Shown here: positions 1 to 57,081 of the stretch, piece after piece | Position numbering within the stretch: position 1 is the stretch's first letter | Layout: every line of letters starts with the position of its first letter | Assembly (NCBI GenBank): GCA_036268455.1 | Contig: DATAUD010000119.1 | Coordinates: 21,155 to 85,154, forward strand | Source: Verrucomicrobiia bacterium | GTDB taxonomy: Bacteria > Verrucomicrobiota > Verrucomicrobiia > Limisphaerales > Palsa-1400 | Reading direction: 5' to 3' | DNA length: 64,000 nucleotides | Notes under the pieces: model-generated | What the model was told of the DNA's origin: nothing | Database searches by the model: none | Seen by the model: only the letters and a program-made list of their open reading frames with translations | Translations under genes and position numbers: made by a program

Positions 1-400
1 CAAATTCAAAATTCGGGTCGGTCAGAAAACGAGGCGCGCTGTCAGACATGAGCACAATGGCGAAGAAGTTTTGCTCGGCGCCTATCTGGAACCCCAGGCT
101 GGCTTCGTTGGCGGCCAGAAATGCGACGGGACTCCACTTGCCAGTCCGCGGGTTTTTGGCAATCGCCACTCCAGAACCGCCTTGGTAGGCGAAGAGAAAG
201 CCGGCCTTGGTGCGGTCCAGCAGGATGATGGCGCGGGCTTTGCGAAGAACGTCGGCGGGAATGCGTTTGCCGGGATCTTGTTGCAATTCTTCAAATTTGG
301 CGGTGAGGGAGAGGACCCTTGCATCCAGATCGGGCTTCTCGAGGGCGATTGCCGGGCCGACGGTCAGCAGCAACACGAAACTGAGGAGGATAGTTCTCAT
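1..400 (-). CDS. SYLF (DUF500/Ysc84-like) domain protein, secreted; 3' end cut by window edge
   Basis: Not in ORF track because there is no stop in the window. Reverse translation from the ATG (complement of 398-400) gives MRTILLSFVLLLTVGPAIALEKPDLDARV...AYQGGSGVAIAKNPRTGKWSPVAFLAANEASLGFQIGAEQNFF. This shows a signal peptide plus a GxG...WSxPxF...GxQxGA pattern that I recognise as SYLF. The frame stays open to position 1. Confidence 0.6.
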   Translation of the reverse strand, partial: MRTILLSFVLLLTVGPAIALEKPDLDARVLSLTAKFEELQQDPGKRIPADVLRKARAIILLDRTKAGFLFAYQGGSGVAIAKNPRTGKWSPVAFLAANEASLGFQIGAEQNFFAIVLMSDSAPRFLTDPNFEF

Positions 401-540
401 ACTTGTTCATCGGGTTGGCGCAATCTGGCGGCGAGCGCGGACGCCATGACGACAAATGAAACGATTAACGACGCCGTGGCGCTCAGCCCGCCGAATAGCA
501 GAAGGAGGTCTTTCATTGCTCCAAATGCGGCAAGTTTCAT
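397..540 (-). CDS. hypothetical 47-aa hydrophobic peptide (MKLAAFGAMKDLLLLFGGLSATASLIVSFVVMASALAARLRQPDEQV)
   Basis: Trimmed from track ORF 397..681. Its TGA overlaps the ATG of the SYLF gene (ATGA at 397-400), which suggests translational coupling. One predicted TM helix, no recognisable family. Confidence 0.3.
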   Translation of the reverse strand: MKLAAFGAMKDLLLLFGGLSATASLIVSFVVMASALAARLRQPDEQV

Positions 541-655
541 GCCCGGCGAAATTCGCCGATTTTCGGGCGAATCTGGGGGTGGCGAAGGGAGCGGATGGAA
601 CTTTGAGAACCAGTCGTGGAACAAAAGCGACCAGTTTTGGCTGTTTTTTCGCTTC

Positions 656-2062
656 TCAGCTCCGGTGCCAGCCGAGTTCATTGAGTTTCTCGCGCATTTT
701 CAATCGGGTGACGCCAAGCCATCGGGCCGCTTTGGCCTGATTGCCCTGGGCCAGTTGTATCGCCTGCTTGAACAGTTCGGGTTCGAGGTCTGCAATCATG
801 CGCGAGAAAGCGTTGTCAATTTCGCCGTTTTGCGCGCGCGCGAGCAATTCAGTGATGTAGGCGGCATGGGTTTGCTGTTTTCCGTCGGCGGGGCGGCGGT
901 TTTTGGCCGTTACCTGCTGGACGTGCTCGAGGCCGATTGGGAAGGGCCGCGCGAGAAGGAGGGCCTGCCGCACCGAGTTTTCCAATTCCCGCACATTGCC
1001 GGGCCATGACTGGTTTTGCAAATAGGCCAGCGCCTCCTGTTGGACGGAAGGGGCCTCGACACCGAGGTCCTTCGCGTAACGCTGGATAAAGTATCTGGCA
1101 AGGTTTGGGATATCCTCCGTCCGCTGGCCGAGGGGAGGCAGTGTAATGGAAACGACGCTCAGACGATAAAAGAGGTCCTCGCGAAACTCGCCTTCCTTAA
1201 TCGCGGTATCGAGGTCGCGATGGGTGGCGGCGAGAACGCGGACGTCCACGGAAATATCCGCTTCGCTGCCGAGGCGTTGGATGCAACCCTCCTGGAGGAC
1301 GCGCAGGAGTTTGCCCTGGGTATTGGCGTTGAGGTCGCCGATCTCATCCAGGAAAAGCGTGCCGCCGCTGGCTTGTTCAAATCTTCCAATGCGTCGGCCC
1401 TGGGCGCCGGTGAACGCTCCGCGCTCGTGGCCAAAGAGTTCGCTCTCGAGCAAAGCGTCGGGGATGGCGGCACAGTTGACAGCGATGAAGGGTTTGTCGG
1501 CGCGGCGGCTGTGCTGGTAGATGGCGCGGGCGATGAGTTCCTTGCCCGTGCCTGTTGCGCCGCGGATCAGCACGGTGGCGGTCGTGGCGGCGACGCGGCC
1601 AATTTCCTTGTAGATCGCCTGCATCGCGCGGCTGTTGCCAATAATGGCGGAGCCGTCCGGCTTTGCCTCGCCCATATCGACCGGTTCGGACATGAGGCGG
1701 CTGCTGGCGACGGCTGTGGCCACCATGTCCAGCAACTCATCGGCCTCGAAAGGTTTGAGCAAATAATCACACGCGCCGAGTTTTGTTGCCTCGATGGCTG
1801 TCTCGGTTGTGCCGTGGGCGGTCATCAAAATGATCGGTTGCTTGGGTTTGGATGCGTGGAGGCGTTCGACAAGTTCCAGGCCGCCCAGTCCCGGCAATCT
1901 TAGATCGGTGACAACGACATCGTGAAATTCTCCCTGGGCGCGCTCCAATCCATCGTCTCCGCGACTGCAGATGGCGACGTCGTAACCTTCGGCGCACAGA
2001 ACTTTTTGCAGCGAGGCGGCGATGCTCGCGTCGTCTTCAATGAGGAGTAGTTTAGGCTTCAT
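656..2062 (-). CDS. sigma-54-dependent response regulator (NtrC/Fis family enhancer-binding protein)
   Basis: ORF 656..2329 trimmed to the ATG at 2062 (MKPKLLLIEDD), which overlaps the upstream kinase stop. REC domain (VVVTDLRLPG), AAA+ sigma-54 interaction domain (GATGTGKE Walker A, GAFTGA loop), C-terminal Fis-type HTH (AARWLGVTRLKMREKL). Confidence 0.9.
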   Translation of the reverse strand: MKPKLLLIEDDASIAASLQKVLCAEGYDVAICSRGDDGLERAQGEFHDVVVTDLRLPGLGGLELVERLHASKPKQPIILMTAHGTTETAIEATKLGACDYLLKPFEADELLDMVATAVASSRLMSEPVDMGEAKPDGSAIIGNSRAMQAIYKEIGRVAATTATVLIRGATGTGKELIARAIYQHSRRADKPFIAVNCAAIPDALLESELFGHERGAFTGAQGRRIGRFEQASGGTLFLDEIGDLNANTQGKLLRVLQEGCIQRLGSEADISVDVRVLAATHRDLDTAIKEGEFREDLFYRLSVVSITLPPLGQRTEDIPNLARYFIQRYAKDLGVEAPSVQQEALAYLQNQSWPGNVRELENSVRQALLLARPFPIGLEHVQQVTAKNRRPADGKQQTHAAYITELLARAQNGEIDNAFSRMIADLEPELFKQAIQLAQGNQAKAARWLGVTRLKMREKLNELGWHRS

Positions 2063-3473
2063 CTTTGGCGATTCGCGGCAACACGATGCTAAAGGTTGTG
2101 CCGCGCCGCAAATCAGTTTGATAACGGAGTTCACCACCATGGTTTTCGATAATGCGGGCGGCGATGGGAAGTCCCAATCCGGTGCCTCCTTCCTTGGTGG
2201 TGAAAAAAGGATCGAAGAGGCGTTTTTTGACTTCGGGCGGGATTCCTTTGCCGTTGTCCACGACCTCGATGACGACCAGTGACGGGCCTCTGCGAGCAGA
2301 CGGAGGTTCGTGGCGAAGGCGCAGTACAATCACACCGTTGCGTTCGATGCTTTCGGCGGAATTATGGATTAGATTGATGAGGACCTGCTTGACTTGTTGG
2401 GGGTCGGCCCGGACCCAGGACTCCTCGGGGATTTCCAATTTCAGCGCGATGGCGTCCTTTTCCAACTGCGGCAGGAGCAAGTCCGCCACCTCGCGCAACA
2501 TGCGCCCCACAGGCACTTCAACCAGTTCGGGATGAGACGGGCGGGCGAATTGAAGGACGTTGCGGACGATCCGTTCCAGGCGTGTGATTTCGCTTGCGAT
2601 GACGGCGGCGTCTTCGTTTTCCGCGAGGGCTGGAGGGAGCGTGTTTTTAAGGCTGAAAAGGCGAAATTTGATGGCGGTGAGCGGATTGCGGATTTCATGC
2701 GCGACGCCCGCGGCGAGAACGCCAAGAGAGGCCAGTTTTTCCTGGCGGGCCACTTCGGCGCGCGTTTCAATCAGTTGATGCCGGAGGGGAGCGATCATGC
2801 CTCGGTAAACGAGCACAACCAGTGCCGCGGCCAGGAGCACGACGATCAGCAAGGAGGTTTGCAGCATTTCCTGGAAACGAGCGAGAGTTCCCTGGGATTT
2901 TCTGAGAAAATCGCCGAATGAGGCGCGTTGATTGTCGATAAATGAATCGCACAGAGCGAGCAGGCGGCGCGACTGGACTTGGACTTTTTCGTAGCTGTTC
3001 TTGAACTCGCGCGCCTGGGTCGATTTGAGCCATCCAAGGGGCTCTTGCAAAACAGGGGCGCTGTCCATCAGATAATCGGCGTACGCGAGCCGGACCTGGC
3101 GAAAGAAATCGGCCTCCACGGGAGTCGCGGCGTTGGTGGCGTTTTGCTCCAGCCATTGCTTGAAATCCCGGGCCTGCTCGCGGAACGCTTCGATGTCGTT
3201 CGTGTCGCCGCGAAGACGGTAGCGGAGGAGTGTCTCGTTTAACCGCTGGATGTCGCCGCGCATGCGAACGCCGAGGTAAAAGTTGTCCGCCTTGAGGCCG
3301 GCAAATTGGCGGCGCAAACTTTTCACCCGCTCCCATGTGGAATGGCTGGCCCAAAGAAGGAGAATTGAACCGACGAAGGCGGTCAAACATAATCCCGCCA
3401 GACGCAGGCGGGCGGCCGGATTTCCGCGGGCGGCACCGGTCAATCCACGTGTGGAATTAAATGTTTCATCCAT
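2052..3473 (-). CDS. sensor histidine kinase (HisKA + HATPase_c) with two-TM periplasmic helical sensor
   Basis: H-box GVAHEIRNPLTAI; N/G boxes LINLIHNSAES, DNGKGIP, GGTGLGLPIA. N-terminal TM, about 150 aa helical region, then a second TM. Overlaps the cognate regulator start. Confidence 0.9.
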   Translation of the reverse strand: MDETFNSTRGLTGAARGNPAARLRLAGLCLTAFVGSILLLWASHSTWERVKSLRRQFAGLKADNFYLGVRMRGDIQRLNETLLRYRLRGDTNDIEAFREQARDFKQWLEQNATNAATPVEADFFRQVRLAYADYLMDSAPVLQEPLGWLKSTQAREFKNSYEKVQVQSRRLLALCDSFIDNQRASFGDFLRKSQGTLARFQEMLQTSLLIVVLLAAALVVLVYRGMIAPLRHQLIETRAEVARQEKLASLGVLAAGVAHEIRNPLTAIKFRLFSLKNTLPPALAENEDAAVIASEITRLERIVRNVLQFARPSHPELVEVPVGRMLREVADLLLPQLEKDAIALKLEIPEESWVRADPQQVKQVLINLIHNSAESIERNGVIVLRLRHEPPSARRGPSLVVIEVVDNGKGIPPEVKKRLFDPFFTTKEGGTGLGLPIAARIIENHGGELRYQTDLRRGTTFSIVLPRIAKDEA

Positions 3474-3496
3474 TTGCGGTCAAGTGTCAGAGTTTG

Positions 3497-3516
3497 GGAA
3501 CAACCCTTAATGTTCC
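3497..3516. promoter_or_regulatory. inverted repeat GGAACA-N8-TGTTCC, candidate enhancer-binding-protein site
   Basis: Perfect 6-bp arms read directly. Lies about 25 bp upstream of the sigma-54-like -24 element in the 95-bp divergent spacer. Confidence 0.25.
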
Positions 3517-3539
3517 GGGAGGATTATTGCTCCATCGCG

Positions 3540-3556
3540 TTGGCACGGCAAACGCT
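3540..3556 (+). promoter_or_regulatory. candidate sigma-54 (-24/-12) promoter TTGGCACGGCAAACGCT
   Basis: TGGCAC-N5-ACGC-T, with GG and GC at canonical spacing. Plus orientation, directly upstream of the CheY/bactofilin operon. The -12 GC is only 13 nt before the ATG at 3569, which implies a near-leaderless transcript. Confidence 0.4.
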
Positions 3557-3568
3557 AATCTACTTTTC

Positions 3569-3988
3569 ATGAAGCAGACGATTCTTGTGGTTGATGATGA
3601 CGCGTCTGTCCTGGAATCCGTGGACAAGGTGCTTAGAGGGGCCGGCTATCAAACGTTGCTGGCGGCGGGAGTGTCCGATGCCATCGTGCAATTTCATGCT
3701 CTTCCAATCGACCTTGTGATGCTCGACATCGGCCTTCCAAATAAGAAGGGCTGGGAGACGTGCAGGCAGGTTTCCGGGGCGCATCCGAACGTTCCGATGA
3801 TCGTCATCGCCGGGCAGGGCGGACCGTTTAGTTCGGCGCTGGCGGCTGGCGCGTCGGCGTTTATGGTGAAACCGCTTGATGCGAACGAAATGCTGAAGAA
3901 GGCGCAGGAACTCCTGGCGCATCCGAGGCAAATCTTGCTGGACCCCGGACAGACGACAACGCATTCCATCCCAAACTTTTCGATTTAA
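3569..3988 (+). CDS. single-domain response regulator (CheY-like receiver)
   Basis: ORF 3461..3988 trimmed to MKQTILVVDDD. Receiver motifs DLVMLDIGLPNKKG and AFMVKPL; no output domain. Confidence 0.85.
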   Translation: MKQTILVVDDDASVLESVDKVLRGAGYQTLLAAGVSDAIVQFHALPIDLVMLDIGLPNKKGWETCRQVSGAHPNVPMIVIAGQGGPFSSALAAGASAFMVKPLDANEMLKKAQELLAHPRQILLDPGQTTTHSIPNFSI

Positions 3989-3990
3989 CC

Positions 3991-4404
3991 ATGAGTGTCA
4001 CAGCGAATACCGGAGCCAGGAACATTCTCAATTCGGACGTCGAGATCAAAGGAAACCTTAAATTTTCCGGGGAATTGAACTTCTCGGGAAAGCTGGACGG
4101 CGAGATTCAATCTGAAGGCGCGCTCCATCTTGGCGACGAAGCGGTCGTCCGGGGCAACATCAATCTTCAATCCGTGATATTGCGCGGCAAGGTGAGCGGG
4201 AATGTATCCGCCAGGGAGCGAATTGAAATCAAGGCAAAGGGGGAGCTGTTCGGCGACATTCGCGCGTCCAAGCTGGTGATTGAGGAAGGGGCGACGTTCG
4301 TGGGCAGGTGCGACGTCAACCCAAACAAAGCCGTGCCGCCGCCGCAAGCCGGAACACCCGCGGCAACGAAACCTTCCGAGCCTGTGATTCCAACGAAAAA
4401 ATGA
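3991..4404 (+). CDS. bactofilin (DUF583 polymer-forming cytoskeletal protein)
   Basis: Typical beta-helix repeats: NILNSDVEIKGNLKFSGELNFSGKLDGEIQSEGALHLGDEAVVRGNI...LFGDIRASKLVIEEGATFVGRCDV. Pro-rich C-terminal tail. Confidence 0.9.
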   Translation: MSVTANTGARNILNSDVEIKGNLKFSGELNFSGKLDGEIQSEGALHLGDEAVVRGNINLQSVILRGKVSGNVSARERIEIKAKGELFGDIRASKLVIEEGATFVGRCDVNPNKAVPPPQAGTPAATKPSEPVIPTKK

Positions 4405-4413
4405 GATACAAAC

Positions 4414-4821
4414 ATGAGCACACCCAACAATGACTCCAAGAACATCCTGAGTTCCGACGTGGAACTCAAAGGCACACTCCGATTTTCCGGCGAATTGACC
4501 TTCGATGGAAAGCTGGAGGGCGATATTCATTCCGAAGGCGCCCTCCACCTGGGGGACAACGCTGTCGTCAAAGGCAACATCACCGCCAATTCCGTGGTGG
4601 TTCGCGGCAAGGTCAACGGCAACGTCACGGCGAAGGAAAAGATCGACATCAAAACGAAGACCGAATTGTTCGGAGACGTGCGCGCCGCCCGGTTGGTGAT
4701 GGAGGAGGGCGTCACGTTTGTGGGCCAGACAGAGGTCAACCCCAACAAAGTTTCGCCCGTAGCGCCGCGGCCCGGCGAACCGGCAAAACCGGTCCTTCCC
4801 GGCAAGCCAGGAGGAATCTGA
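4414..4821 (+). CDS. bactofilin paralog
   Basis: Colinear with the previous gene (NILSSDVELKGTLRFSGELTFDGKLEGDIHSEGALHLGDNAVVKGNI...LFGDVRAARLVMEEGVTFVGQTEV). Confidence 0.9.
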   Translation: MSTPNNDSKNILSSDVELKGTLRFSGELTFDGKLEGDIHSEGALHLGDNAVVKGNITANSVVVRGKVNGNVTAKEKIDIKTKTELFGDVRAARLVMEEGVTFVGQTEVNPNKVSPVAPRPGEPAKPVLPGKPGGI

Positions 4822-4827
4822 TCCCCA

Positions 4828-5523
4828 GTGGCACTCAAGGTGGATACGGTTTTGGTGACCTGCCCCAGTTGCGGTCACAAACAGCCGGAACCGCGCAGTG
4901 CTTATTCCGGCATCTGTAAGAGATGCCGCGGGCATTTTCGCCTTGCCGAAGCGCTGGATACAACGCCCAAGCCACCGCCGCTGGCGTTCGAGCAGAGGCG
5001 CGTGGCCTGTTTCGAATGTGGCGCTGAATTGGAGGTGTCTATCGCGGCCGAATCGACGATGTGCAAGCGGTGCAGCAGCCACGTGGACCTGCGCGATTAT
5101 CAAATCACGCAGGCTATTTCAAAAAGTTTCCGAACGCATGGCCGTTTGGTCATCGAGGAAAAGGGTTATCTCCTCAACACCGAATCTGTCGCGGGCGATG
5201 CTGTCATCAAGGGCCGCCTGATCGGCAAGCTCATGGCGAAGCGAACGCTCGAGATTTATTCCACCGCCCATATCAAAGGGACATTCACGGCGGAGCGGCT
5301 CATTGTCCCGGCGGGCAACCATTTTCGCTGGCCAGAAATCGTTCGGGTCGGAGGCGCGGAGATCGGCGGCGAACTGGCAGCCGAATTGGAAAGTTCAGGC
5401 ATTATCCATCTCAAGTCCACCGCCCGGCTTTTTGGGAATGTCCTGGCGCGTCACCTGATCGTCGAGAGCGGCGCGGTATTGGTCGGCGCGGCGCGAATCG
5501 GCAAGTTGCCTGCCCTCTCTTGA
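4828..5523 (+). CDS. double zinc-ribbon / bactofilin-domain fusion protein
   Basis: GTG start. N-terminus has four CxxC pairs (CPSCG...CKRCRG...CFECG...CKRCSS). The C-terminal half has bactofilin-like repeats (GRLVIEEKGYLLNTESVAGDAVIKGRLIGKLMAKRTLEIYSTAHIKGTFTAERLIV...LFGNVLARHLIVESGAVLVG). Confidence 0.75.
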   Translation: MALKVDTVLVTCPSCGHKQPEPRSAYSGICKRCRGHFRLAEALDTTPKPPPLAFEQRRVACFECGAELEVSIAAESTMCKRCSSHVDLRDYQITQAISKSFRTHGRLVIEEKGYLLNTESVAGDAVIKGRLIGKLMAKRTLEIYSTAHIKGTFTAERLIVPAGNHFRWPEIVRVGGAEIGGELAAELESSGIIHLKSTARLFGNVLARHLIVESGAVLVGAARIGKLPALS

Positions 5524-5643
5524 GGGTATTGACGGGGGAGGGAGTTGGCTGGCATCTTGATACTCAGACGAATGCCGCAATATTTTCGAAAACGAATAAA
5601 TTACGCCGGATGGGCGTCTGATTTAAGGAGCAGCTATCCTTCG

Positions 5644-8600
5644 ATGCACCGGCTTGGAGTCTTATTTCTGACCGTCTTATGTTCGGCGGCGGCGTCCGCT
5701 TTTGGCGCGCCAGTCGTGCCGGCAGCGGGCGTGTCCACGTCTAAAGGCAAGGTGGACTTTGTCCGCGACATTCAGCCGATGATTTCGGGGAAGTGCCTGA
5801 GTTGCCACGGGCCTCGCAAGCAGGAGGGGCATTTGCGATGGGACAACAAAGAAAGCGCGCTGACCGGCGGGGAGCACGGACCTAATATCATTCCAGGCAA
5901 TAGCGGCAAAAGCCGGCTCATCCAATTGGTCACAAGCACCAATGATGATGATATTATGCCGCAAAAGGGGGACCCACTGACGGATGCGCAAGTCAGCGTT
6001 CTCCGGGCGTGGATCGATCAAGGGGCGAATTGGCCAGCGAGTGCGTCTGTGGAAATCGTGGATCCGCGGAAGCATTGGGCTTTCAAGGCTCCGGTGAGGC
6101 CGGCGCCGCCATCGGTCAAGAATAAGAAATGGGTGCGCAATCCGATTGATGACTTCGTTTTGGCGAAGCTTGAGGAGGAGAAGTTATCGCCGTCGCCAGA
6201 GGCGGACCGGGCGACGCTGTTGCGGCGGGTGAGTCTGGACCTGACGGGGTTGCCGCCGACGATTGAGGAGGTGCAGGAATTTGTGAACGACCGTTCGCCG
6301 GACGCTTATAAACGGCAGGTGGAACGGCTTCTGGCATCGCCGCATTACGGGGAATGCTGGGCGCGGCATTGGCTGGATGTGGCGCATTACGCGGATTCGA
6401 ACGGTTACGAAAAGGATTTGACGCGCTCGATTTGGCCGTATCGAGACTGGGTGATTAACGCCTACAACGAGAACATGCCGTTCGATCAGTTTGCGATTGA
6501 TCAATTGGCGGGAGACATGCTGCCGAATGCGACGCCTGAGGAGAAGGCGGCGACGGGATTTCTTCGGAATTCGATGCTGAATGAGGAAGGGGGGATTGAC
6601 CCGGAGCAGTTTAGGATTCAAGGAATTATTGAACGGATGGATGTCCTCGGGAAATCATTTCTCGGTTTGACGATCAATTGCTGCCAGTGCCACAACCACA
6701 AATACGATCCGATTTCGCAGAAGGAGTATTATCAGTTGTTCGCCTTCCTCAATAATGACGATGAGCCGGCAATGGAAATTCCCGACAAGAAAACCGAGGC
6801 GGCGCGCGACGGCATCCGAGACACAATCGCCAAAATGGAAGATGAAATGCTGACAAAAACGCCGGGCATCGCTGGAAAAATGGAGGCGTGGGAGAAAAAA
6901 ATGGCCGGGGTGAAGCGCGATTGGACTGTGCTGGACCCCTCGGCGTTTTATGGCTCGGTGGGAACGAAATTCAACAAGCAGGACGATGGATCGTTGCTGG
7001 CGACCGGGTCGAATCCGCCGTTTTCCGAGTATAGCGTCACGTGCAAAACGAAGCTCAAGGGGATCACGGCTTTTCGATTGGAGGCGCTGCCGGACCCGAA
7101 CCTTCCTTACAACGGGCCGGGCCGCGCGGAGAACGGGAACTTTGTGCTCTCGGAGTTTTCGGTCCAGGCGGGAACCAACAAAGTCGTGTTGACCAATGCC
7201 ACGGCTGATTTTTCGCAGGCTGGGTTTTCCGTCGCGGCCGCGATCGACGGAATAATAACGAACAAAATCGGCTGGGCTGTCGAGGATTTGCCGGGGCGGC
7301 GCAATCGTTATCGTCAGGCGGTATTTGAAACGGTTACACCGGTTGGCGATGGCAACGAGATAACACTGAAGTTCGCGCTGAACCAATCTTATGGCTCTGA
7401 ACATACGATTGGGCGGTTCCGCATTTCGGCGAGCACGGGAGATCGTCCAGTCCAGGCCGACCCGCTCTCGCCGCACGGGCGGGAAATTCTTGCGATAGCG
7501 CGGGCGAACCGGACGGCGGCGCAAGAGCGGGAATTGTTCAATTTTTATCGTGTGAGCGATCCCGAGCTTGCGGAGGCCAACAATAAAATCGACGATGAAC
7601 AAGGGAAATGGCCGACCGCTCCGACGACTTTGGTTTTGCAAGCGCGAGCGGAGCCGCGGGAGACGCACATATTCAAACGCGGCGATTGGCAAAAGCAGGG
7701 AGAGCTGGTTACGCCGGGCGTGCCATCAATTTTGCACCCGTTGCCGCCGGGCCAGCCGCTGAATCGATTGACGCTGGCCAAGTGGCTCGTGGATAAAAAG
7801 AATCCGACGCTGGCGCGGGTCATCGTGAACAGAATCTGGCAGGAATATTTCGGGCGCGGGATTGTTGTGACCTCGGAGGATTTTGGCACGCAAGGAGACA
7901 AACCGACACATCCGAAATTGTTGGATTGGCTGGCGACCGAATTCATGAATTCCAGATGGGACGTCAAACATATCCAACGGCTCATTGCGGAATCCGCGAC
8001 GTATAGGCAATCGTCGGTCATCACGCCGCAGATGTGGGAGCGCGACCAATACAATTCGCTTTTGGCGCGCGGGCCGCGGGTGCGAGTTGACGCGGAAATC
8101 ATACGCGACATTGCGTTGAGCGCGGGGGGATTGCTGGACCTCAAAGTCGGCGGGCCGAGTGTTTATCCGCCCATTCCCGACGGTGTATTGACGCTTGGCT
8201 ACGGAGCGCCGATGGCCTGGAAGACGAAAGCGGATGACCGTTATCGCCGCGGGATGTACACTTTTGCGAAGCGCTCGGTGCCGTATCCTTCATTGCAGGT
8301 GTTTGACGCGCCGACGGGGGAATCGCCTTGCACGCGGCGCATTCGGTCGAACACGCCGTTGCAGGCGTTGACGACGTTGAATGACCCTGTGTACGTCGAG
8401 GCGGCGCAGGCGATGGCGATGCGGGTGTGGAAAAACGGAGGAAAGGACGAGAAGTCGCGGATCAATTACGCGTTCGAGCTTTGCACAGGCCGCCAGCCGG
8501 GGCCGAGCGAAGTCGCAACCATTTCTTCATTGCTCAACGATGAAAGCGATTACTTTGAAAACAGCACGGTCCGCGCGGTAAAAGTAGCCTCGCACGACCC

Positions 8601-8700
8601 GAAAAATCCGCCGGAGGATGTCAACCTGCACAAGGTGGCGGCGTGGACGATGGTTTCGCGTGTGTTGCTGAACATGGACGAGACAATTACAAAGGAGTGA
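5644..8700 (+). CDS. PSCyt1/PSCyt2(DUF1549)/PSD1(DUF1553) domain protein
   Basis: Trimmed to [21 protein letters not shown] (signal peptide). CLSCHG cytochrome-c-like motif, [11 protein letters not shown] (DUF1549), [12 protein letters not shown]-terminal DUF1553-like region. AAGGAG lies upstream of the ATG. Confidence 0.9.
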
Positions 8701-8704
8701 AGTC

Positions 8705-10156
8705 ATGAACCTGAACGAGTATCACAGGGAAGAAGGCAAAAAATTACTGACGCGGCGCTACTTTTTTAAGGAATGCGGCATGGGGCTTGGGGCGCTGGCG
8801 CTGGCGTCTTTGTTGCGCGGGACTGATGCTGGAGCCGCGCCCGCGGTCAATCGGATGGATCCACTAGGGCCGCGTTCGCCGCAATTTGCGCCGAAGGCGA
8901 AACGAGTCATTTATCTTTTCCAGGCGGGCGGCCCGAGCCAGTTGGACATGTTCAATTACCGGCCAGCTCTGGAGAAATACGACGGCCATCCGATCCCCGC
9001 GGAATTTGTAAAGAATCAGCGATACGCATTTATTAAGCCGGACGCGGCGCTGTTCGCGTCGCAATTCAAATTTGCCAAACACGGGCGTTGCGGCACGGTG
9101 CTTTCCGAAGTGCAGCCGCATCTGGCTGAGGTTGTCGATGACATTGCGGTGATCAATTCGATGACGACGGTGGCTTTCAATCATGCGCCGGGACAAATAT
9201 TCATGAACACAGGCGCCACGCAATTCGGACGTCCGAGCATGGGGGCGTGGGTGACATACGGATTGGGCAGCGTGGCACGGGACTTGCCGGGATTTGTGGT
9301 GCTCAGTTCGGCGGGCGGAACCAGTGGCGGAGCCGGGAACTGGGGGGCTGGATTTTTGCCGACGGTGTATCAAGGGGTGCCATTCCGGCGGAGCGGAGAC
9401 CCGATTTTATATCTGGCCAATCCGCCCGGGATAACTCCGCAGATGCAACGGCGGTCGCTCGACGCGCTCAAAGCGTTGAACCAGGAGCGGCTTGACGTGG
9501 TGGGCGACCCGGAGATTTCGACGCGCATCAATTCGTTTGAGATGGCCTACAGGATGCAGACGAGCGCGCCGGAGTTGATGGATATTACGAAGGAATCCAA
9601 AGAGACGCTTGAGATGTACGGGGCGGAGCCGGGGAAGAGTTCCTTTGCCAACAATTGTTTGCTGGCGCGAAGACTCGTGGAGCGCGGGGTGCGGTTTGTG
9701 CAGCTTTTTCATGAGGCGTGGGACCATCACAGCGATGTTACGGGCAACGTCAGGAAAGAGTGCGGTTTGACCGACAAACCGTGCGCGGCGTTGATCAAGG
9801 ACTTGAAGCAGCGCGGATTGTTGGAGGATACTTTGGTGATATGGGGCGGAGAATTTGGCCGGACGCCGATGGTGGAAACAAACAAGGAAGCCGGCCGCAG
9901 CATGGGCCGCGACCATCATCCTCAAGCGTTCACAATGTGGCTGGCGGGCGGGGGGGTTAAACCCGGATTGACCCTTGGCAAAACGGATGAGTTCGGGTTC
10001 AACATCACTGAAGACCCGGTGCCGGTGCACGATCTGCAGGCGACGATTCTCTATTTACTGGGTTTCGATCATACCAAGCTGACTTATCACTTCCAAGGAC
10101 GCGATTTTCGATTGACAGACGTCGAAGGGGAAGTTGTCAAGAAGCTGCTGGCGTAG
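8705..10156 (+). CDS. DUF1501 (sulfatase-fold) protein with Tat signal
   Basis: [19 protein letters not shown] twin-arginine signal; WGGEFGRTP...GRDHHP core motifs. Usual partner of DUF1553 proteins. Confidence 0.9.
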
Positions 10157-50140: not shown

Positions 50141-52396
50141 ATGCCGCACGACTCGAACAACTCACATTCCATTGGTCGCGGTGAGGCGTTGACGACCCAG
50201 TCGGGACGCCTCCAACGGGCGTGGCATGCCGCGCGCGGTTTCGCGCTTCGCCAGCCCAACGGCCAATTTGTTGAAACCATCGTTGTGGTCTGGCTGACCC
50301 TCTCCGTCGCCAGCGTCGTCCTGGCAAGCGCCACGTGGATTCAATTCTCGGGAAAATTAAATACCGCCACACAGACAGTCGCCATCCGAATCAAATTAGA
50401 GGCGATCTATAATCTTCTTCTTCAAGCCGACAGCAGCCAGGGTGCCTATGTCATTACCGGCGACAAGCAATTCCTCAAATCATTGGACTCGAGTTCCAAA
50501 AGTTTGCCGCCCCTTTTTGAGCAACTTGCCGTGCTGGCGCAGAACGATCCCGTGTTGCTCAAGCGCGTCATGGACTTGCACGGCCAGGCCGAGGTGAGTC
50601 TCAATTACCAGCACCGTGTCGTCGCCGCCCGCCAGGAGCAAGGGCAAGCCGCAGCCGCCGCACTGGTCGCCACCGGCGAAGGCCAGAGCATGATGGAAGC
50701 CATTCGCAAGGACACCGATGAAATTGCCAACGAGCGGGCCGACCACCTCGTTTCCGACCAGGACGGAAGCGCCCGCTATCAACTGAAGCGCGCCAGCTTG
50801 ACTGGCCTTACCGCCGGCATCCTCGGAATCGGCGCCGGAGTTCTGGCTTTTGCGCTCTCACGGTTGACCGTTAAACATCAGGAGCGCGAGCGTGAATTGA
50901 TCGAAGCCCGCCTCCAGGCGGAGCGGCGCAGCCAGGAAAAGACCGCTTTCCTCGCCAACATGAGCCATGAAATCCGCACGCCGATGAATGCCATTCTCGG
51001 GTTCAGCGAACTTTTGGAGGAGGATTTGCGCGCGTCCAAACACCGCACCTATTTGCAATCCATCCGGCGCAGCGCCTCCTCGCTCCTTCAACTCATCAAC
51101 GACATGCTCGACATGTCGAAAATCGAGGCTGGCGTCCTCGAATTGCGGCCTGAACCGACCGATCCGCGTGAAATTTGCAATTTCATCCAAAGCGTCTTTT
51201 CCGAGACCGCCGCAAAAAAGGGTTTGTGGATGTCCTGCAAAATTGCTGGCGATCTGCCGCATGCTCTCTTGCTCGATCGGATTCGTTTGCGCCAGATTTT
51301 GGTGAACCTTGTGGGGAATGCCGTCAAGTTTACCGATCACGGCGGGATCGAGACTCGCATGAGTTGGGAAAAACAAACGGATGGCGGCCGAGTCACGCTC
51401 GTCATCGAAGTCGAGGACACCGGCGTCGGCATTCCGTTGGACCGCCTGGAAGCGATCTTCAAGCCGTTTGTCCAGGCAGGCGCGCATCGCGAAAAGGAGA
51501 ACCAGGGGGCGGGGCTTGGACTTTCGATTGTCAAACGCCTGACCGAAATAATGGCGGGCACCGTCACAGCCAGCAGCATGCCGGGGCGCGGTTCGATCTT
51601 TCACTTGCGGTTTCCCGATGTCCCGGTTTCGGCGCGCCTGCCTTTGACCGAGTTGGCCAAAGACCGGGTGGCGACGGATTTCAATGCCCTTCGCCCCTCA
51701 AGATTGTTGGCTGTCGATGACAATGAGACCAATCGCCAGCTTCTTGGCGCAATGTTTGCGGGTTCGCATCATCGGCTCTTCCTCGCCTCTGGCGGACGGG
51801 AAGCTGTGGAAAAGGCCCGCCAACTCCGGCCCGATATTATCTTGCTGGATATTCGGATGCCAGACATCGACGGCTGCGAAGTGCTCGATACGTTGCGAAA
51901 GATTCAAGGGCTTGAGGTGACGCCAGTCATTGCGATCACCGCTTCGGGTTTGATTTCCGAGGAAAACGCGATGAAGGCGCACTTCAGCGGTTATGTCCGG
52001 AAGCCCTTTACCCGCCAGGATATTTTTGACCAACTGGCGCAATTCCTTCCGTCGCAAGTCACCAAAGAATCCGCCCCCGCGCCAGCCATTGCAGACACCC
52101 GCAACGCTTCGGCCTCCGCCGTTCCTCGCGAGGTTCTTGTGGAAGTGCAACGGCTGATGGACGCCGAGTGGCCGTCCGTGCGGGACAGCGTGGCCATCAA
52201 TGAAAGCAAAGCCTTTGCGTCCAAACTTGATGTGCTCGGCCGGCGTTGGAGTTGCGAACCGCTGATTTCCTACGCGCGAATCCTTCGGAGCCACGCGGAA
52301 AGTTACGCGGTGGTCGATCTTGAGAATACGTTAATGGATTTTTCCAATGTGTCTCGGGAACTGCATCGCCAAGCCTCGGACTATGCAATCAAATGA
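50141..52396 (+). CDS. CHASE3-domain hybrid sensor histidine kinase/response regulator
   Basis: TM, CHASE3 (LLLQADSSQGAYVITGDKQFLKSL...), TM, HisKA (ANMSHEIRTPMNAILGFSELL), HATPase_c, REC (RLLAVDDNETN...DIILLDIRMPDIDG), plus about 110 aa of helical C-terminal extension. Confidence 0.9.
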   Translation: MPHDSNNSHSIGRGEALTTQSGRLQRAWHAARGFALRQPNGQFVETIVVVWLTLSVASVVLASATWIQFSGKLNTATQTVAIRIKLEAIYNLLLQADSSQGAYVITGDKQFLKSLDSSSKSLPPLFEQLAVLAQNDPVLLKRVMDLHGQAEVSLNYQHRVVAARQEQGQAAAAALVATGEGQSMMEAIRKDTDEIANERADHLVSDQDGSARYQLKRASLTGLTAGILGIGAGVLAFALSRLTVKHQERERELIEARLQAERRSQEKTAFLANMSHEIRTPMNAILGFSELLEEDLRASKHRTYLQSIRRSASSLLQLINDMLDMSKIEAGVLELRPEPTDPREICNFIQSVFSETAAKKGLWMSCKIAGDLPHALLLDRIRLRQILVNLVGNAVKFTDHGGIETRMSWEKQTDGGRVTLVIEVEDTGVGIPLDRLEAIFKPFVQAGAHREKENQGAGLGLSIVKRLTEIMAGTVTASSMPGRGSIFHLRFPDVPVSARLPLTELAKDRVATDFNALRPSRLLAVDDNETNRQLLGAMFAGSHHRLFLASGGREAVEKARQLRPDIILLDIRMPDIDGCEVLDTLRKIQGLEVTPVIAITASGLISEENAMKAHFSGYVRKPFTRQDIFDQLAQFLPSQVTKESAPAPAIADTRNASASAVPREVLVEVQRLMDAEWPSVRDSVAINESKAFASKLDVLGRRWSCEPLISYARILRSHAESYAVVDLENTLMDFSNVSRELHRQASDYAIK

Positions 52397-54177
52397 ATGC
52401 TTTATTGCAAAATATGGAGCCGTCGGCGCTGGACCTTCTCAAGGATCGGCGCATTCTCGTCGTGGACGATCAATGGACTAACATTCAGGTGGTGGGCGCG
52501 TTGCTCGGGGACCTGGGTGTGGAAATCATTCCGGCGCTCAACGGCCAGGAGGCCCTGGACCGGGCTTCCGCCTGCTCCCCGGATCTGGTCCTCCTTGACC
52601 TCATCATGCCCGGCATGGATGGTTGCGAGGTTTGCCGCCGTCTTTCCGAGACTGGGCAAGGCCGCGAAATTCCAATCATTTTTCTCTCCGCGGCGGATGA
52701 TAAGGACTTGGTCGTCCGCGCATTGACCGCCGGCGGCGTCGATTACATCACCAAACCGTTCAACTCGGCGGAATTGCTTTCCCGCGTTCGGACTCAACTT
52801 GCCCTGAAGTCAGCCCGTGATGATTTAAAGCAATTGGCTGAGGAAAAGGACGAACTTCTCGGGATGTTGACGCACGATTTGAAGAGCCTCCTCGGCGGAA
52901 TCAATTTGAGCGCTGGATTGGCGCAAGACCGCCTTGCGACGGTGAACAATCTTTCTGCCGCAAAATTGGCGGAGGAAATCGCCGACGGCAGCGCGCGCCT
53001 TCTCTCCTTTGTAAAACAATTCCTCGCCACCGCTGCCACAGACCACGCGATCCCCGCCGACTCCCATCGGGCCTCCCCAGTCGGACGCGTCCTCGTCACG
53101 GATGACCAGCCGGAAAACATCCAGTTGGTCGGCGCCATTTTGGGCCGCCTGGGTCACGAAATCATTCCGGCGACGGACGGTGCTACAGCCGTCAAACGAA
53201 TGGAGTTAAAAACGCCGGACCTGGTCCTTCTGGACCTTCTGATGCCGCGCATTGACGGCTTCGAAACGTGCCGCCGCCTCCGCTCCAAACCCGAAGGCAA
53301 AGAAGTTCCAATCATTTTCCTTTCCTCCGCGGGCGACAAGGATTTCATAGTTCGGGGCTTGCAGGCGGGGGCAGTGGATTATGTCACCAAACCGTTTCAC
53401 CAAGCCGAATTGGTGCTCAGAGTGCAAACCCAATTGGCCTTGAAGTTTACCCGCGACCGTTTGGCGCAACTGGCCTCAGACCGCGAACACTTGCTCGGCC
53501 TGCTGGCGGACGATTTCAAGAAACAACTGGAAAAAACGCTCGATCAAGCCCGCTCTTTAGAACATCGGACACAAGGATGCCCCGACGAACGCGCGGCCCA
53601 ATTGGCGGTGAATATCGCCCGTTCCGCGGAGCAACTGGTGGAGTTTGTGACGGGCTTTCTCAACGCAGCAGGCGAAAAGCCGGCGTTGCGACGGGTTCCG
53701 TTGAGTTTTTCCAACGCGGTGAAAGGGACAGTCAAACGCTATCTCGAATCAGCGCGGGAAAAGGACGTGCGCCTCGTTCTCGAACCGCCGCCACCGTCAG
53801 AAAACGACCTGGTGCTGGCGGACGAAACGGCGGTCAATCGAGTCCTGGATAATCTTGTCTCCAACGCGCTTAAATTTTCGCCTCGAAAAACAACCGTCCG
53901 GCTTTCCGTCCAATCCAGCGGCCGCCAAGTCCAATGCCGGATCGCCGACCAGGGCCCTGGTTTTACACCGGAGGATAAGACACGCATGTTTCGCCGGTTC
54001 GGGCGTCTTTCCGCCCGTCCCACAGGCGGCGAGCCTTCCACCGGCCTCGGCCTCAGCATAGTCCGAAAATTGACCCGGGCGATGGATGGCGAGATTACCT
54101 GCCAATCCGTTCCTGGCGAGGGCGCCGTTTTTACCGTCGGCCTGCCCCGCCTTCCCGGTCAACTCACCCAAAGCTGA
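52393..54177 (+). CDS. REC-DHp-REC-DHp(degenerate)-HATPase_c signalling protein
   Basis: ATGA overlap with the upstream gene. Two receiver domains (ILVVDDQ...DLVLLDLIMPGMDG; VLVTDDQ...DLVLLDLLMPRIDG). Each is followed by a DHp-like helix (LGMLTHDLKS versus LGLLADDFKK), and a single C-terminal ATPase (NLVSNALKFSP...DQGPGF...GLGLSIV). Confidence 0.85.
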   Translation: MNALLQNMEPSALDLLKDRRILVVDDQWTNIQVVGALLGDLGVEIIPALNGQEALDRASACSPDLVLLDLIMPGMDGCEVCRRLSETGQGREIPIIFLSAADDKDLVVRALTAGGVDYITKPFNSAELLSRVRTQLALKSARDDLKQLAEEKDELLGMLTHDLKSLLGGINLSAGLAQDRLATVNNLSAAKLAEEIADGSARLLSFVKQFLATAATDHAIPADSHRASPVGRVLVTDDQPENIQLVGAILGRLGHEIIPATDGATAVKRMELKTPDLVLLDLLMPRIDGFETCRRLRSKPEGKEVPIIFLSSAGDKDFIVRGLQAGAVDYVTKPFHQAELVLRVQTQLALKFTRDRLAQLASDREHLLGLLADDFKKQLEKTLDQARSLEHRTQGCPDERAAQLAVNIARSAEQLVEFVTGFLNAAGEKPALRRVPLSFSNAVKGTVKRYLESAREKDVRLVLEPPPPSENDLVLADETAVNRVLDNLVSNALKFSPRKTTVRLSVQSSGRQVQCRIADQGPGFTPEDKTRMFRRFGRLSARPTGGEPSTGLGLSIVRKLTRAMDGEITCQSVPGEGAVFTVGLPRLPGQLTQS

Positions 54178-54178
54178 C

Positions 54179-55540
54179 ATGGACTTCCTCATCATAGATG
54201 ATGATAAAACGTTCCGTGATGCGACGCGATTGGTCGTGGAAGGGGCTGGCCATTACGCTGAAGGGGCGGCTTCGGGCGATGAAGGTCTCGCCCTCTTGAA
54301 ACAGGAAAAATTCGAGGCCGTTCTCCTGGATGTTCACCTCAACGGTGAGAACGGACTGGAAGTGCTGCCGCGAATTCAGGAACAGAATCCTGGCTTGCCC
54401 GTCGTGCTCTTCACTGCCGAGGGCAACGTCAAGACTGCCGTTGAAGCCATGCGGCTGGGCGCGGTTGATTTCCTGGAAAAACCCTTTCAACGGGAGCATT
54501 TTCTGGCCGTTCTGGCGCGATTGCAACGGCTTCGCCAGATGGGCCAGAAAATCGAGCGTCTGGAGCGCGAAGTCACAGAATCCAAGACGAATTCTCTGGA
54601 ACCCGTCTTCAATTTCAACACTCCCGCCATGCGGGACGCGATGGATGTGCTCATGCGCGCCGCCAAAACTCCCGCTTCCATTCTCATTTTGGGCGAGAGC
54701 GGCACCGGCAAGAGCGTCGCCGCCCGCGCCATTCATCAGAACAGTCACCTGGCGGACAAGCCATTCGTCACCGTCAGTTGCCCGAGCCTTTCAAAAGAAT
54801 TGCTGGAGAGCGAGCTTTTCGGCCACGTCCGCGGCGCATTCACGGGAGCCGTCAAGGATCATTGGGGCAAAGTCAGGGTGGCCCACGGTGGCACGCTTTT
54901 CCTCGATGAAATCGGCGATCTGCCGATGGAGATTCAACCCAAGCTCCTCCGCCTCCTCCAGGAACGCGAATACGAGCGCCTAGGCGACAACTCTGTCCAT
55001 ACCGCCAACGTCCGCGTCATCGCCGCCACCAATCGCAACCTCAAGGAGCGCGTCGCCGCCGGCGTCTTTCGCGAAGACCTCTTTTTCCGTCTCAACGTCA
55101 TCACCGTCGAAGTGCCTCCCCTGCGATTGCGCCCCGACGATCTTGGTCCTCTTGCCGAACATTTCCTCCGGCATTTCGCGCAGCAATGCGGACGCAAGCT
55201 GGACGGCTTTTCTCCCGAGGCCATGGCGTGCATCCGGCGTCATCCGTGGCCCGGCAATCTCCGGGAACTTTGCAACGCCATCGAACGCGCCGTCATCCTG
55301 GCGGGCGGCGAAATGATCCTACCTCAGGATTTGCCCGCTGATTTGAGCCATCCCGATTCCGGCAATGGCAGCCAGACCGACGACTTAAAGGCGGGATCGT
55401 TAGTTTCGTTGGAAAAGCTGGAAGAGGTTCACATTCGGCGTGTCCTGGAGCGCACCGCCCGGTTGACCGAAGCCTCCGAGATTTTGGGCATCGATCAGGC
55501 GACATTATACCGAAAACGCAAAAAAATCGGCTTGGAATAG
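54179..55540 (+). CDS. sigma-54-dependent response regulator (NtrC family enhancer-binding protein)
   Basis: Trimmed to [12 protein letters not shown], 1 nt after the upstream stop. REC, AAA+ ([14 protein letters not shown]), Fis-type HTH ([20 protein letters not shown]). Confidence 0.9.
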
Positions 55541-55641
55541 CCATCCATCACAGCAGACCGATTTCGCGCTCAATGATGAGAATATTCAATTAAATGCTTC
55601 TTCAACTACGAAAAACATACTTCAAATAGACAATTTCCGGC

Positions 55642-56796
55642 TCACGCATCAAGCAAGTCACCGACTGATTGAAGCGCCGGCAGTCGGTCGCAGATGACTT
55701 TCAATGTCACCAATATCGGCATCGCCAGCAATCCTCCCATAATTCCCCAAAGCCACGCAAAAAACATCAGCGCCACGAAAATGACAACCGGGTTCAGCCG
55801 AAATCGATACCCCAGCAGAAATGGAGTAACAAGGTCCGCTTCCAACACGTGCCAGCAAAGATAAATCCCCCCCGGCAGCAACCCGCGCAATACCGTGTCA
55901 AAGGAAAGAAGCCCCGCAACAGACACCACGATAATCCCGGCAATCGGTCCGAAATACGGTATATAATTAACCACACCCGCCAGGACCCCCCACATCGTGG
56001 CATTGGGCATTCCCGCCAGATGTAAAGTAAATCCCACGCACACTCCAAGGCAGGTGTTGATAATGCTGACAGCAAAAAGATAACGGGAAATGTTCTGCTG
56101 GATCTGATGCGTCATCTCGACCGCTTCCTTTTTGTCACCCTTTGGTTGCAGTACACGAACCAGCCTCGGCGTGAAGCGATCTCCCGTGGCGAGCAGCAGA
56201 AACAATAACACACCCGTTTCGATGACACCGGTGAACAACGCGCCGGTCCATGTGAAGACCGTCCCCGCGATGGCGCCTCCGGCGGGAATCGGCGCGGCGG
56301 CAGGCTCGGGGGGTTTTCCCGTGGTTTTGTTGTCCACGTTTTGCACGGCGGCCATGAGCCGGGAAACAGGGCGGAAGAAACGCTGATATTTCTCCCGCAA
56401 TCGCGGCAAGGATTCCGGCGCCGTTCGCAACCAATCACTGACGGGTCGGCCAAGGTTGACCAATCCCCAACCCAGCCCGGCGACAAGGATTCCCATGAGT
56501 ATGGCGGCGGAAATCGGGGCCGGAATCCGATGCGCCCTCAGCCAGGTCATCGGGGGATACAACGCCATCGAGGCAACCCACGCGAGCAATACCGGCAGCA
56601 CTACCGATGAGGCGCAGTAGAACAAAAGAAGAAACCCCGCGCAAGTGATGATCAATCGCGTGGCGTACGAGAGCATTGCATCTGGTTTGCGGTCTGCTTT
56701 CGTATGCGACGCTTGCGAGTGGCGACGCGCGGAATGCCCATCCTCTTTTTCGATAATTGGGTGAGTCGGCGGGTCTGGCATCGTTTTGATAGCCAT
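55642..56796 (-). CDS. AI-2E family transporter (PerM/UPF0118)
   Basis: Trimmed to MAIKTMPDPP; the TAATG overlaps the upstream small gene. About 8 TM helices; the C-terminal GGLLAMPILVTLKVI pattern is typical of PF01594. Confidence 0.8.
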   Translation of the reverse strand: MAIKTMPDPPTHPIIEKEDGHSARRHSQASHTKADRKPDAMLSYATRLIITCAGFLLLFYCASSVVLPVLLAWVASMALYPPMTWLRAHRIPAPISAAILMGILVAGLGWGLVNLGRPVSDWLRTAPESLPRLREKYQRFFRPVSRLMAAVQNVDNKTTGKPPEPAAAPIPAGGAIAGTVFTWTGALFTGVIETGVLLFLLLATGDRFTPRLVRVLQPKGDKKEAVEMTHQIQQNISRYLFAVSIINTCLGVCVGFTLHLAGMPNATMWGVLAGVVNYIPYFGPIAGIIVVSVAGLLSFDTVLRGLLPGGIYLCWHVLEADLVTPFLLGYRFRLNPVVIFVALMFFAWLWGIMGGLLAMPILVTLKVICDRLPALQSVGDLLDA

Positions 56797-56942: not shown

Positions 56943-56957
56943 TCGTCGTTTTCTTTT

Positions 56958-56973: not shown

Positions 56974-57004
56974 CGCGATCTCCAACCAAAATGGACGCGG
57001 GGGC

Positions 57005-57050: not shown

Positions 57051-57081
57051 CCGAATGCGAGGTATGCCCGCGATGCGCGAG

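Follow-up and report, generated by a model that had tools for sequence, protein, structure and literature searches.

How do the genes of a bacterial cytoskeleton come to lie directly behind a two-component system of the NtrC type, and does this position place them under its control? Bactofilins have been studied almost entirely as scaffolds and the timing of their production has been little explored. The question is raised by a stretch of 64,000 nt of DNA from a Verrucomicrobiia bacterium, hereafter called the window, in which a sensor histidine kinase together with a sigma-54 activator, encoded on the minus strand, diverges from a plus-strand operon for a single-domain receiver and three bactofilins, the last of which carries a double zinc ribbon (abbreviated as Bac1, Bac2 and ZnBac; table 1). 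An earlier account made from the letters of this DNA only, hereafter the sequence-only reading, had proposed that the bactofilin operon possesses its own sigma-54 promoter and forms a signal-gated cytoskeletal module with a CheY-like modulator. Gene calls and Pfam searches confirm its six genes, their domains, the gaps of 2–9 nt (2, 9 and 6 nt for receiver–Bac1, Bac1–Bac2 and Bac2–ZnBac, respectively) and the 95-bp spacer between kinase and receiver (3474–3568). Our analysis indicates that this spacer very probably holds a true sigma-54 promoter, whose likely activator is encoded alongside, that the promoter belongs to the receiver gene of a widespread regulatory module, and that its capture by a bactofilin operon has, in the reading we favor with some reserve, brought the bactofilins of this lineage under the control of the activator.

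The Sigma-54 Element in the Spacer

The element on which these considerations turn, TGGCACGGCAAACGCT, is present as had been described, with its GG and GC at sigma-54 spacing and facing the receiver and bactofilin genes. Compared with the extended consensus TGGCACG-N4-TTGCW, it matches TGGCACG in full, and its −12 side, ACGCT, matches the GC and the W and not the TT. By itself the motif is unremarkable, since TGGCAC-N7-GCW is found twice across the window versus 1.25 matches expected; both matches are intergenic, co-oriented with the gene downstream and less than 2.5 kb from the gene of an activator with the GAFTGA motif. It is the comparative conservation of the element, not the motif count alone, that is decisive for its assignment to sigma-54.

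Full-length orthologs of the kinase form a large family in Verrucomicrobiae, with 60–80% identity, and nine context look-ups of such orthologs constituted our kinase-side sample (activator orthologs in L081–L083 are 86–90% identical). Eight independent close spacers could be compared (window, L164=L167, L081, L082, L083, L165=L166, L171 and L172), and the 16–17 nt of TGGCACGGCAAACGCT(A) are the sole fully invariant block in them. More distant modules, with 35–50% identity in the kinase and 59–73% in the activator, were obtained from a metagenome scan with the kinase alignment (kinase-core peptides), which returned distant orthologs only. In 31 of 40 such loci, TGGCA[CT]-N7-GC points at the receiver gene, where about one match would be expected from the background frequency of the pattern, 0.057 per kb per strand as measured across 2.1 Mb of DNA from relatives. 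Among the positions that this pattern leaves unfixed, whose bases are those to be expected of sigma-54, G follows TGGCAC in 25 of 30 loci and T follows GC in 27 of 30, then AA, while the four positions in the middle of the spacer are nearly uninformative; the family-wide form of the element is TGGCAC-G-N5-(C)GCTAA. Its distance to the kinase start ranges from 60 to 300 nt in distant orthologs, with spacing and receiver-ward orientation kept.

The sequence-only reading was also correct in placing the element unusually close to the receiver gene, for 13 nt separate the C of the −12 GC from the A of the ATG (3569). The predicted start of transcription would fall at 3567–3569, at or no more than 2 nt from this ATG. 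The distance from GCT to ATG is 12 nt in the close spacers (13 in L082), though the nucleotides in between vary from lineage to lineage; outside the close clade it is 11 nt in L106 and L115 and 12 nt in L129, the other loci having leaders of 57–290 nt. The near-leaderless geometry is a conserved trait that reappears in further lineages, the mRNA start itself being predicted from it; no class of leaderless sigma-54 transcripts, or of sigma-54 promoters abutting the start codon, is apparent in the results returned by a literature search. (Among the long-leader variants, L095, L099, L103 and L117 share a conserved leader segment, ggctcacgcccgcgaaccggccacaggg, in the last ~45 nt before the receiver ATG.)

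Distribution of the Regulatory Module and of Bactofilin Operons

A receiver gene (encoding 121–173 amino acids) divergent from a kinase–activator pair across ~90 bp is a recurrent layout, and it is found without bactofilins in L081, L082, L083, L165/166, L171, L172 and the P0133 contig. Taken together, bactofilins are missing from the module in eight of the nine close contexts and, among the distant loci, in all those whose kinase match is full-length, where the divergent receiver is mostly present and a bactofilin never. The module is usually flanked at one end by a 77-codon open reading frame and a zinc alcohol dehydrogenase gene, and has Ysc84 or trehalose genes at its other end. The promoter is thus that of the receiver gene of this module, and cannot be regarded as the bactofilin operon's own. 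The full layout of the window, from activator and kinase across to receiver, Bac1, Bac2 and ZnBac, is encountered elsewhere only in L164/L167, which have identical spacers (L164 is contig DASYBE010000356.1 of GCA_036500985.1); the distance from the receiver gene to the bactofilin trio is 2–15 nt in these loci and in the window.

The same conclusion is reached from the side of the bactofilins. Alignment of zinc-ribbon bactofilin homologs, of which there are more than 2000 matches, provided 80 species-representative loci, all of them metagenome-assembled genomes (MAGs) of Verrucomicrobiota by sequence context. Kinase and activator lie beside bactofilins in none of these 80 representatives; the synteny whose conservation among relatives the sequence-only reading had set beforehand as a test does not extend beyond the window and one sister lineage (L164/L167). 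The core of one bactofilin plus ZnBac is kept in 78 of the 80 loci, and two canonical bactofilins occur, among these loci, only in the closest relatives, L001–L004 (tblastn in both cases). The single bactofilin of other species is consistently nearer to Bac2 than to Bac1, Bac2 being the ortholog of the partner of ZnBac.

Where bactofilin operons are free-standing, they tend to have a promoter of another kind. We compared the presence of TTGAC within −150 to −10 of the operon with two sets of control regions and found it in 57 of 77 free-standing loci versus 11 of 75 and 15 of 78 controls, while the combined −35/−10 pattern occurs upstream of 32 of 77 bactofilin loci and in no control. (A strict scan for sigma-70 promoters of the Escherichia coli type upstream of 78 bactofilin operons gave almost nothing and was too strict.) By contrast, the receiver gene of the window contains no TTGAC, and no sigma-70-like site is found on the plus strand from 3380 to 5557.

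The trio itself occurs in three contexts. In context A (L003, L004, L168 and L170) it stands free between a UbiE-type methyltransferase gene and leucine-rich repeat/FtsY genes, behind a promoter resembling TTGAAC-N17/18-TAATAT. Context B is that of the window and L164/L167, with the trio behind the receiver gene. In context C (L001, L002 and L169) neither kinase nor activator is present any longer; what is left of them is the spacer with the first ~36 kinase codons, and HEAT-repeat genes lie next to these remains. Comparison of these loci indicates that context C would be derived from B. The receivers of context C have decayed, being reduced to a remnant by truncation in L001 and L169 and having the acid pocket changed from DDD to NEN in L002 (2161–2571), while all three bactofilin genes are intact in these loci. 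All nine TGGCAC/GCT positions are kept in L001 and L002, with changed spacer bases, and the −12 GC has become CC in L169, so that the evidence for continued selection on the promoter after loss of kinase and activator is ambiguous.

Two further observations concern free-standing bactofilin operons. A near-perfect palindrome, CCTAGGAAATTCCTAGG, is located ~20–40 nt upstream of the TTGAC −35 in L005–L016, L030, L042 and L054, which suggests a dedicated DNA-binding regulator of operons with bactofilin plus ZnBac. Sigma-54-like motifs of the form TGGCACGGTTTCTGCC or TGGCACAnCAAAAGCTAAA are present within 130–270 nt upstream of the bactofilin start in L022, L046, L050, L055, L058, L069 and L078; with L001 this makes 8 of 78 loci versus 1.76 expected (Poisson p 5e-4). 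The seven former loci also share the inverted repeat CTGCAA...TTGCAG(G/A)ATGC, and L046 has an NtrC-like gene convergent with the ZnBac gene.

Transcription of the Bactofilin Genes in the Window Lineage

From these comparisons we infer how the locus may work, including its dependence on sigma-54 and activator, the leaderless start, the cotranscription of the four genes, the role of the receiver and the nature of the signal. Basal amounts of kinase and activator would be supplied by a sigma-70-type promoter on the minus strand; the kinase would phosphorylate the activator, which would then open the plus-strand sigma-54 promoter, and transcription would begin at the receiver ATG, or no more than 2 nt away from it, to give an essentially leaderless mRNA. 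The receiver would be the only consistent product of this promoter in most relatives. In the window lineage, the Bac1–Bac2–ZnBac operon would have been transplanted 2 nt behind the receiver stop codon with loss of its own TTGAC-type promoter, and the trio would most likely be reached by transcripts from the sigma-54 promoter, its polymer-forming proteins being produced only upon signaling by the kinase. Signal-dependent expression of the bactofilins is plausible because there is no room for a promoter of their own in this lineage. To this extent the idea of a signal-gated cytoskeletal module has support; it does not extend to the module at large, which is normally without bactofilins. A fuller picture, in which capture moved a three-paralog scaffold from a housekeeping sigma-70 promoter to a sigma-54 promoter that fires at the start codon, with the polymer built only upon a signal from a periplasm-sensing kinase, a leaderless polycistronic transcript and a −24/−12 element doubling as the −35 of the kinase, is put forward tentatively, as a combination slightly more apt to fail than to hold.

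Several points weigh against control of the bactofilins by the activator. The start site, the dependence on sigma-54 and the read-through into Bac1 are deduced from sequence. The −12 region reads CGCT instead of the canonical TTGC. No rpoN gene is found in the 64-kb window by a match to the RpoN box, nor is any activator site pinned down there, the candidates (see below) being chance-level or not conserved. The signaling role of the window receiver may already be altered, given the Ala found at the position of Thr87 of CheY. The arrangement is known in two lineages only and may represent a recent, selectively neutral rearrangement, and a weak non-consensus promoter may reside inside the receiver gene. 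Finally, the bactofilins of L169 must be expressed in another way, because their −12 GC is mutated and yet the genes are intact.

The last points lead to the alternative that deserves most attention, namely that the sigma-54 promoter serves the receiver only, that the trio was brought to its place by neutral rearrangement, and that its transcription starts mainly at an unrecognized promoter internal to the receiver gene, in its 3' half, at levels largely independent of the signal. The restriction of the linkage to two lineages and the intact bactofilins of L169 are as this alternative would have it, and the sigma-70 promoters of Verrucomicrobia differ enough from the E. coli consensus for a strict scan to have missed most of them, so that an internal one could be missed too. 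Nevertheless, the receiver gene is devoid of the TTGAC present in most free-standing operons and of any sigma-70-like site, and the gap between receiver and Bac1 is just 2 nt. The 3988/3991 junction has no terminator-like hairpin with a T-tract, the sole candidate on the plus strand being weak and lying inside the receiver gene (3845–3858). Moreover, L001 and L002 keep the −24/−12 positions though their receiver is destroyed or degenerate. We consider an internal promoter as the main source of bactofilin transcripts unlikely on this evidence, and retain read-through from the sigma-54 promoter as the preferred explanation.

The Receiver Gene

The product of the receiver gene, a CheY/DivK-like protein of 139 amino acids, has an acid pocket DD, a phospho-acceptor Asp and a Lys that align with D12/D13, D57 and K109 of CheY. 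Residue ~81 (in the motif IVIAGQ) is Ala where E. coli CheY has T87 and where all six aligned orthologs have Thr; in CheY-like proteins this position is normally a Thr or Ser that links phosphorylation with output. Orthologous receivers are 55–56% identical and occupy the same divergent position in at least seven contexts without a bactofilin.

The sequence-only reading had taken this protein for a CheY-like modulator of the bactofilins, and in the strongest form of that idea the receiver would be an effector that binds them and modulates their polymerization, the four genes forming one functional unit. The receiver gene indeed lies tight against Bac1 in the window and L164/L167, and the window receiver has diverged at the Thr87 equivalent. 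Such a role appears improbable in view of the contexts in which orthologous receivers have no bactofilin for company, of the 76 species among 80 that have the bactofilin pair without a receiver, and of context C, where the receiver decays after loss of kinase and activator while the bactofilins persist. Because its decay goes with loss of the kinase, the receiver has the look of a kinase partner, or pathway component, and because bactofilins do without it in so many species it would not be a bactofilin accessory. Most likely it would take up phosphate from the kinase as a second acceptor inside the pathway, thereby providing feedback or a phosphate sink.

A Putative Kinase Promoter and Other Elements of the Spacer

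On the minus strand, a putative sigma-70-type promoter overlaps the sigma-54 element, its −35 sequence TTGCCG being the reverse complement of CGGCAA in the sigma-54 spacer (table 1). This −35, the 17-nt spacing and a hexamer [GAC]ATA[AG]T are kept in all eight close spacers, and we suggest that this promoter drives the kinase–activator operon. Its presence would explain why the spacer of the sigma-54 element is frozen in the close clade and changed (to AGAAA and GGAAA) in L001 and L002, which have no kinase. The overlap also gives rise to the thought that the invariant 16-mer is conserved merely as the −35 region of the kinase or as the operator of another regulator, GGCAA being invariant in close relatives with its reverse complement 17 nt from the conserved hexamer, but this is very improbable given that distant orthologs have a free spacer and a variable distance to the kinase with TGGCA[CT]-N7-GCT kept in spacing and orientation, that L001 and L002, now devoid of the kinase and with other spacer bases, still have TGGCAC and GCT, and that the element, like the second match in the window, adjoins the gene of a GAFTGA activator.

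Binding sites for the activator were sought among several repeats. The perfect inverted repeat GGAACA-N8-TGTTCC, to which the sequence-only reading had drawn attention, is present at its place upstream of the sigma-54 element; nonetheless, 25–33% of random or shuffled 95-mers contain a perfect 6-bp inverted repeat if its loop may be as long as 20 nt, and the repeat of the window is absent from orthologous spacers, so that it was rejected as an activator site. A partly conserved dyad-like block ~70 nt upstream of the predicted start is a candidate activator site, or part of the leader of the kinase mRNA. Inside the first kinase codons, ~90–130 nt upstream of the −24, four 6-bp palindromes follow one another with an exact period of 11 bp; this array, the only one in 64 kb and found in none of 30 shuffles, is a candidate enhancer and is not conserved in orthologs. 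A structured RNA at the kinase leader or spacer was considered and rejected, given that RNAalifold gave no consensus pairs in this region for eight sequences and Rfam nothing in positions 1–10000 of the window at E up to 0.1.

Tandem dyads such as GGTAAG-N3-GTTACC, GCAAAG-N3-CTTTGC and TGGTCAG-N3-CTGACCA are found in distant loci 60–130 nt upstream of the sigma-54 motif (L087, L089, L099, L103, L106, L114, L115, L144 and others), falling inside the first kinase codons in loci with short spacers; they look like the enhancer sites of this family of activators.

Gene Products and Neighborhood

The coordinates of the features discussed are collected in table 1.

Table 1. Features of the Window Around the Kinase–Receiver Spacer, with the Evidence for Each
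Feature	Positions	Strand	Evidence or description
Ysc84-family gene, 3' part, downstream of activator	2..376	−	tblastx match at 78% identity with Ysc84 gene in L164/L167
NtrC-type sigma-54 enhancer-binding response regulator (activator)	656..2062	−	REC PF00072, Sigma54_activat PF00158, AAA_lid_14 PF25601, Fis-type HTH_8 PF02954 (Pfam)
Sensor histidine kinase	2052..3473	−	HisKA and HATPase_c (Pfam)
Four 6-bp palindromes CGGCCG, CCGCGG, ACCGGT, CACGTG (candidate enhancer)	3413..3451		Exact 11-bp period; inside first kinase codons
Partly conserved dyad-like block AGAGTT-N7-AACCCT	3489..3507		GGGCTT-N6-AAGCCC in L164; alignment of eight spacers
Inverted repeat GGAACA-N8-TGTTCC	3497..3516		Chance-level, not conserved
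Putative sigma-70-type promoter of kinase–activator operon	3523..3551	−	−35 TTGCCG 3551–3546, 17-nt spacer, −10 AATAAT 3528–3523
Predicted sigma-54 −24/−12 element TGGCACGGCAAACGCT (TGGCAC-N5-CGCT)	3541..3556	+	GG 3542–3543, GC 3554–3555, 10 nt between
Single-domain receiver, CheY/DivK-like, 139 aa	3569..3988	+	PF00072 only (Pfam)
Bactofilin 1 (Bac1), lineage-specific duplicate	3991..4404	+	PF04519, E 1e-27, 96.7 bits
Bactofilin 2 (Bac2)	4414..4821	+	PF04519, E 3e-27, 95.0 bits
Double zinc-ribbon and bactofilin protein (ZnBac)	4828..5523	+	PF04519, E 3e-15, 56.9 bits
Short GC-rich hairpin ACGCCggatGGGCGT, weak candidate operon end	5603..5617		After ZnBac gene; scan gave minus strand only

The activator has the domain set of an NtrC-family enhancer-binding response regulator, with a receiver domain, an AAA+ domain (Sigma54_activat match with E 8e-73 and 244 bits in Pfam) that contains the GAFTGA motif, and a Fis-type helix-turn-helix. 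It scores below the NCBIfam equivalog cut-offs of ntrC, its best match (488.6 vs 558.6 bits), AtoC (399.8 vs 714) and ZraR (383.9 vs 760), so that it does not qualify as NtrC (NR-I) proper, AtoC or ZraR. Its start is overlapped by 11 nt by the kinase gene. The kinase has two predicted transmembrane segments around a helical sensor domain of ~160 amino acids, as read by eye, followed by the catalytic domains; the sensor domain gives only a weak match to KinB_sensor in Pfam. All three bactofilins exceed the Pfam gathering cut-off for PF04519 (27.9 bits), and ZnBac has eight invariant Cys in four CxxC pairs.

The Ysc84 gene downstream of the activator is the customary neighbor of this two-component system in relatives, as judged from Pfam context. 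Between the activator gene and a trehalose-6-phosphate synthase/phosphatase gene, L165 has a canonical TGGCATGGAACTTGCG (9121–9136), a hint of a regulon for osmotic or desiccation conditions. As a general explanation, control of trehalose or Ysc84 genes was rejected, the trehalose-side motif being found in L165 only and absent in L082, L083 and L164.

Elsewhere in the window, the bactofilin genes are followed (5545–10156) by genes for a PSCyt1/PSCyt2/PSD1 (DUF1549/DUF1553) protein and a DUF1501 protein, a pair typical of Planctomycetes and Verrucomicrobia and in agreement with the taxonomic placement of the window. A second sigma-54 system occupies 50141–57383, with a hybrid kinase (50141–52396), a protein with two receiver domains and a kinase (52393–54177), a GAFTGA activator (~54176–55540) and a permease on the minus strand (55642–56907), assigned by eye from its translation to the PerM/AI-2E-like family. 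The second motif match of the window, TGGCACGGTGTGTGCA at 57082–57097, lies there ~70 nt before the gene of a small protein with two transmembrane segments (GTG at 57168, to 57383). A third sigma-54-like site, TGGCATGGGGCTAGCTAAAA (58531–58550), has the same GCTAAA flavor and is found ~90 nt upstream of the gene for a signal-peptide protein (58622–59197), probably in a divergent intergenic region.

Comparison with Known Systems and Significance

The closest parallel in layout is the ZraS/ZraR-zraP system of E. coli and Salmonella, with its divergent sigma-54 promoters and ZraP acting as a repressor (PMC4987338). There, too, an NtrC-type activator and its kinase face a small accessory gene that is transcribed divergently from a sigma-54 promoter lying between them, and the accessory product feeds back on the system, as the receiver may do here. 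The accessory protein is a periplasmic chaperone in that case and a cytoplasmic single-domain receiver in ours; moreover, TGGCA[CT]-N7-GC is present here on the plus strand only and the kinase operon is faced by a predicted sigma-70-like site, the proteins fall short of the cut-offs for ZraR and ZraS, and cytoskeletal genes would ride on the accessory transcript. NtrB/NtrC with the promoter glnAp2, the textbook case of a sigma-54 two-component system, shares with our system the arrangement REC-AAA+(GAFTGA)-HTH, a GG-N10-GC promoter and upstream dyad enhancers, the latter in distant orthologs. It differs from the present proteins, which are below the NtrC cut-off, include a membrane-bound kinase with a periplasmic-type sensor and have no nitrogen genes nearby; the −12 element is here CGCTAA and the promoter abuts the start codon.

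Tandem paralogs are known among bactofilins, BacA and BacB of Caulobacter being such a pair. Myxococcus xanthus has three, BacN, BacO and BacP, together with the adaptor PadC (bioRxiv 10.1101/2020.06.17.156356). The window resembles these operons in its several tandem paralogs, presumably copolymerizing scaffolds, and departs from them in the N-terminal double zinc ribbon of the third member, in having no ParA, ParB, PadC or LytM partner adjacent, and in an expression that is apparently enhancer-dependent.

As to regulation, the statement of the sequence-only reading that bactofilins are generally constitutive was too sweeping. In Bacillus subtilis, the bactofilin genes of yhbDEF form an operon with the gene of the regulator BacR (YhbD) and depend on it, and a link to cell-envelope stress has been suggested (PMC13649987). 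BacR is, unlike the proteins considered here, a DUF4004 DNA-binding protein titrated by the bactofilins, and neither a two-component system nor sigma-54 nor a receiver is involved. Another case is NtrX of Rhodobacter sphaeroides, for which chromatin immunoprecipitation with sequencing identified the MepM/NlpD–bactofilin unit RSP_2974-2975 as a direct target, the change in expression being not significant (0.06) (PMC7240162). NtrX is likewise an NtrC-family regulator tied to a bactofilin unit, but the system is not known to depend on sigma-54 and the genes are not adjacent to the two-component system. Our literature searches found no report of sigma-54 control of bactofilins and none of zinc-ribbon bactofilins.

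The practical weight of the locus is limited, all carriers being uncultured MAGs from soil or peat and the linkage being present in two lineages only. It amounts nonetheless to a natural and phylogenetically datable experiment, in which most relatives have the operon behind a sigma-70-type promoter, the window has the same operon behind an all-or-none sigma-54 promoter and sister lineages show intermediates of decay. If our interpretation is true, a single rearrangement can make a cytoskeletal module conditional. The widespread and so far uncharacterized verrucomicrobial module of divergent receiver, kinase and enhancer-binding protein would then gain a defined promoter and candidate enhancers, and sigma-54 promoters that abut the start codon would constitute a recurrent class.

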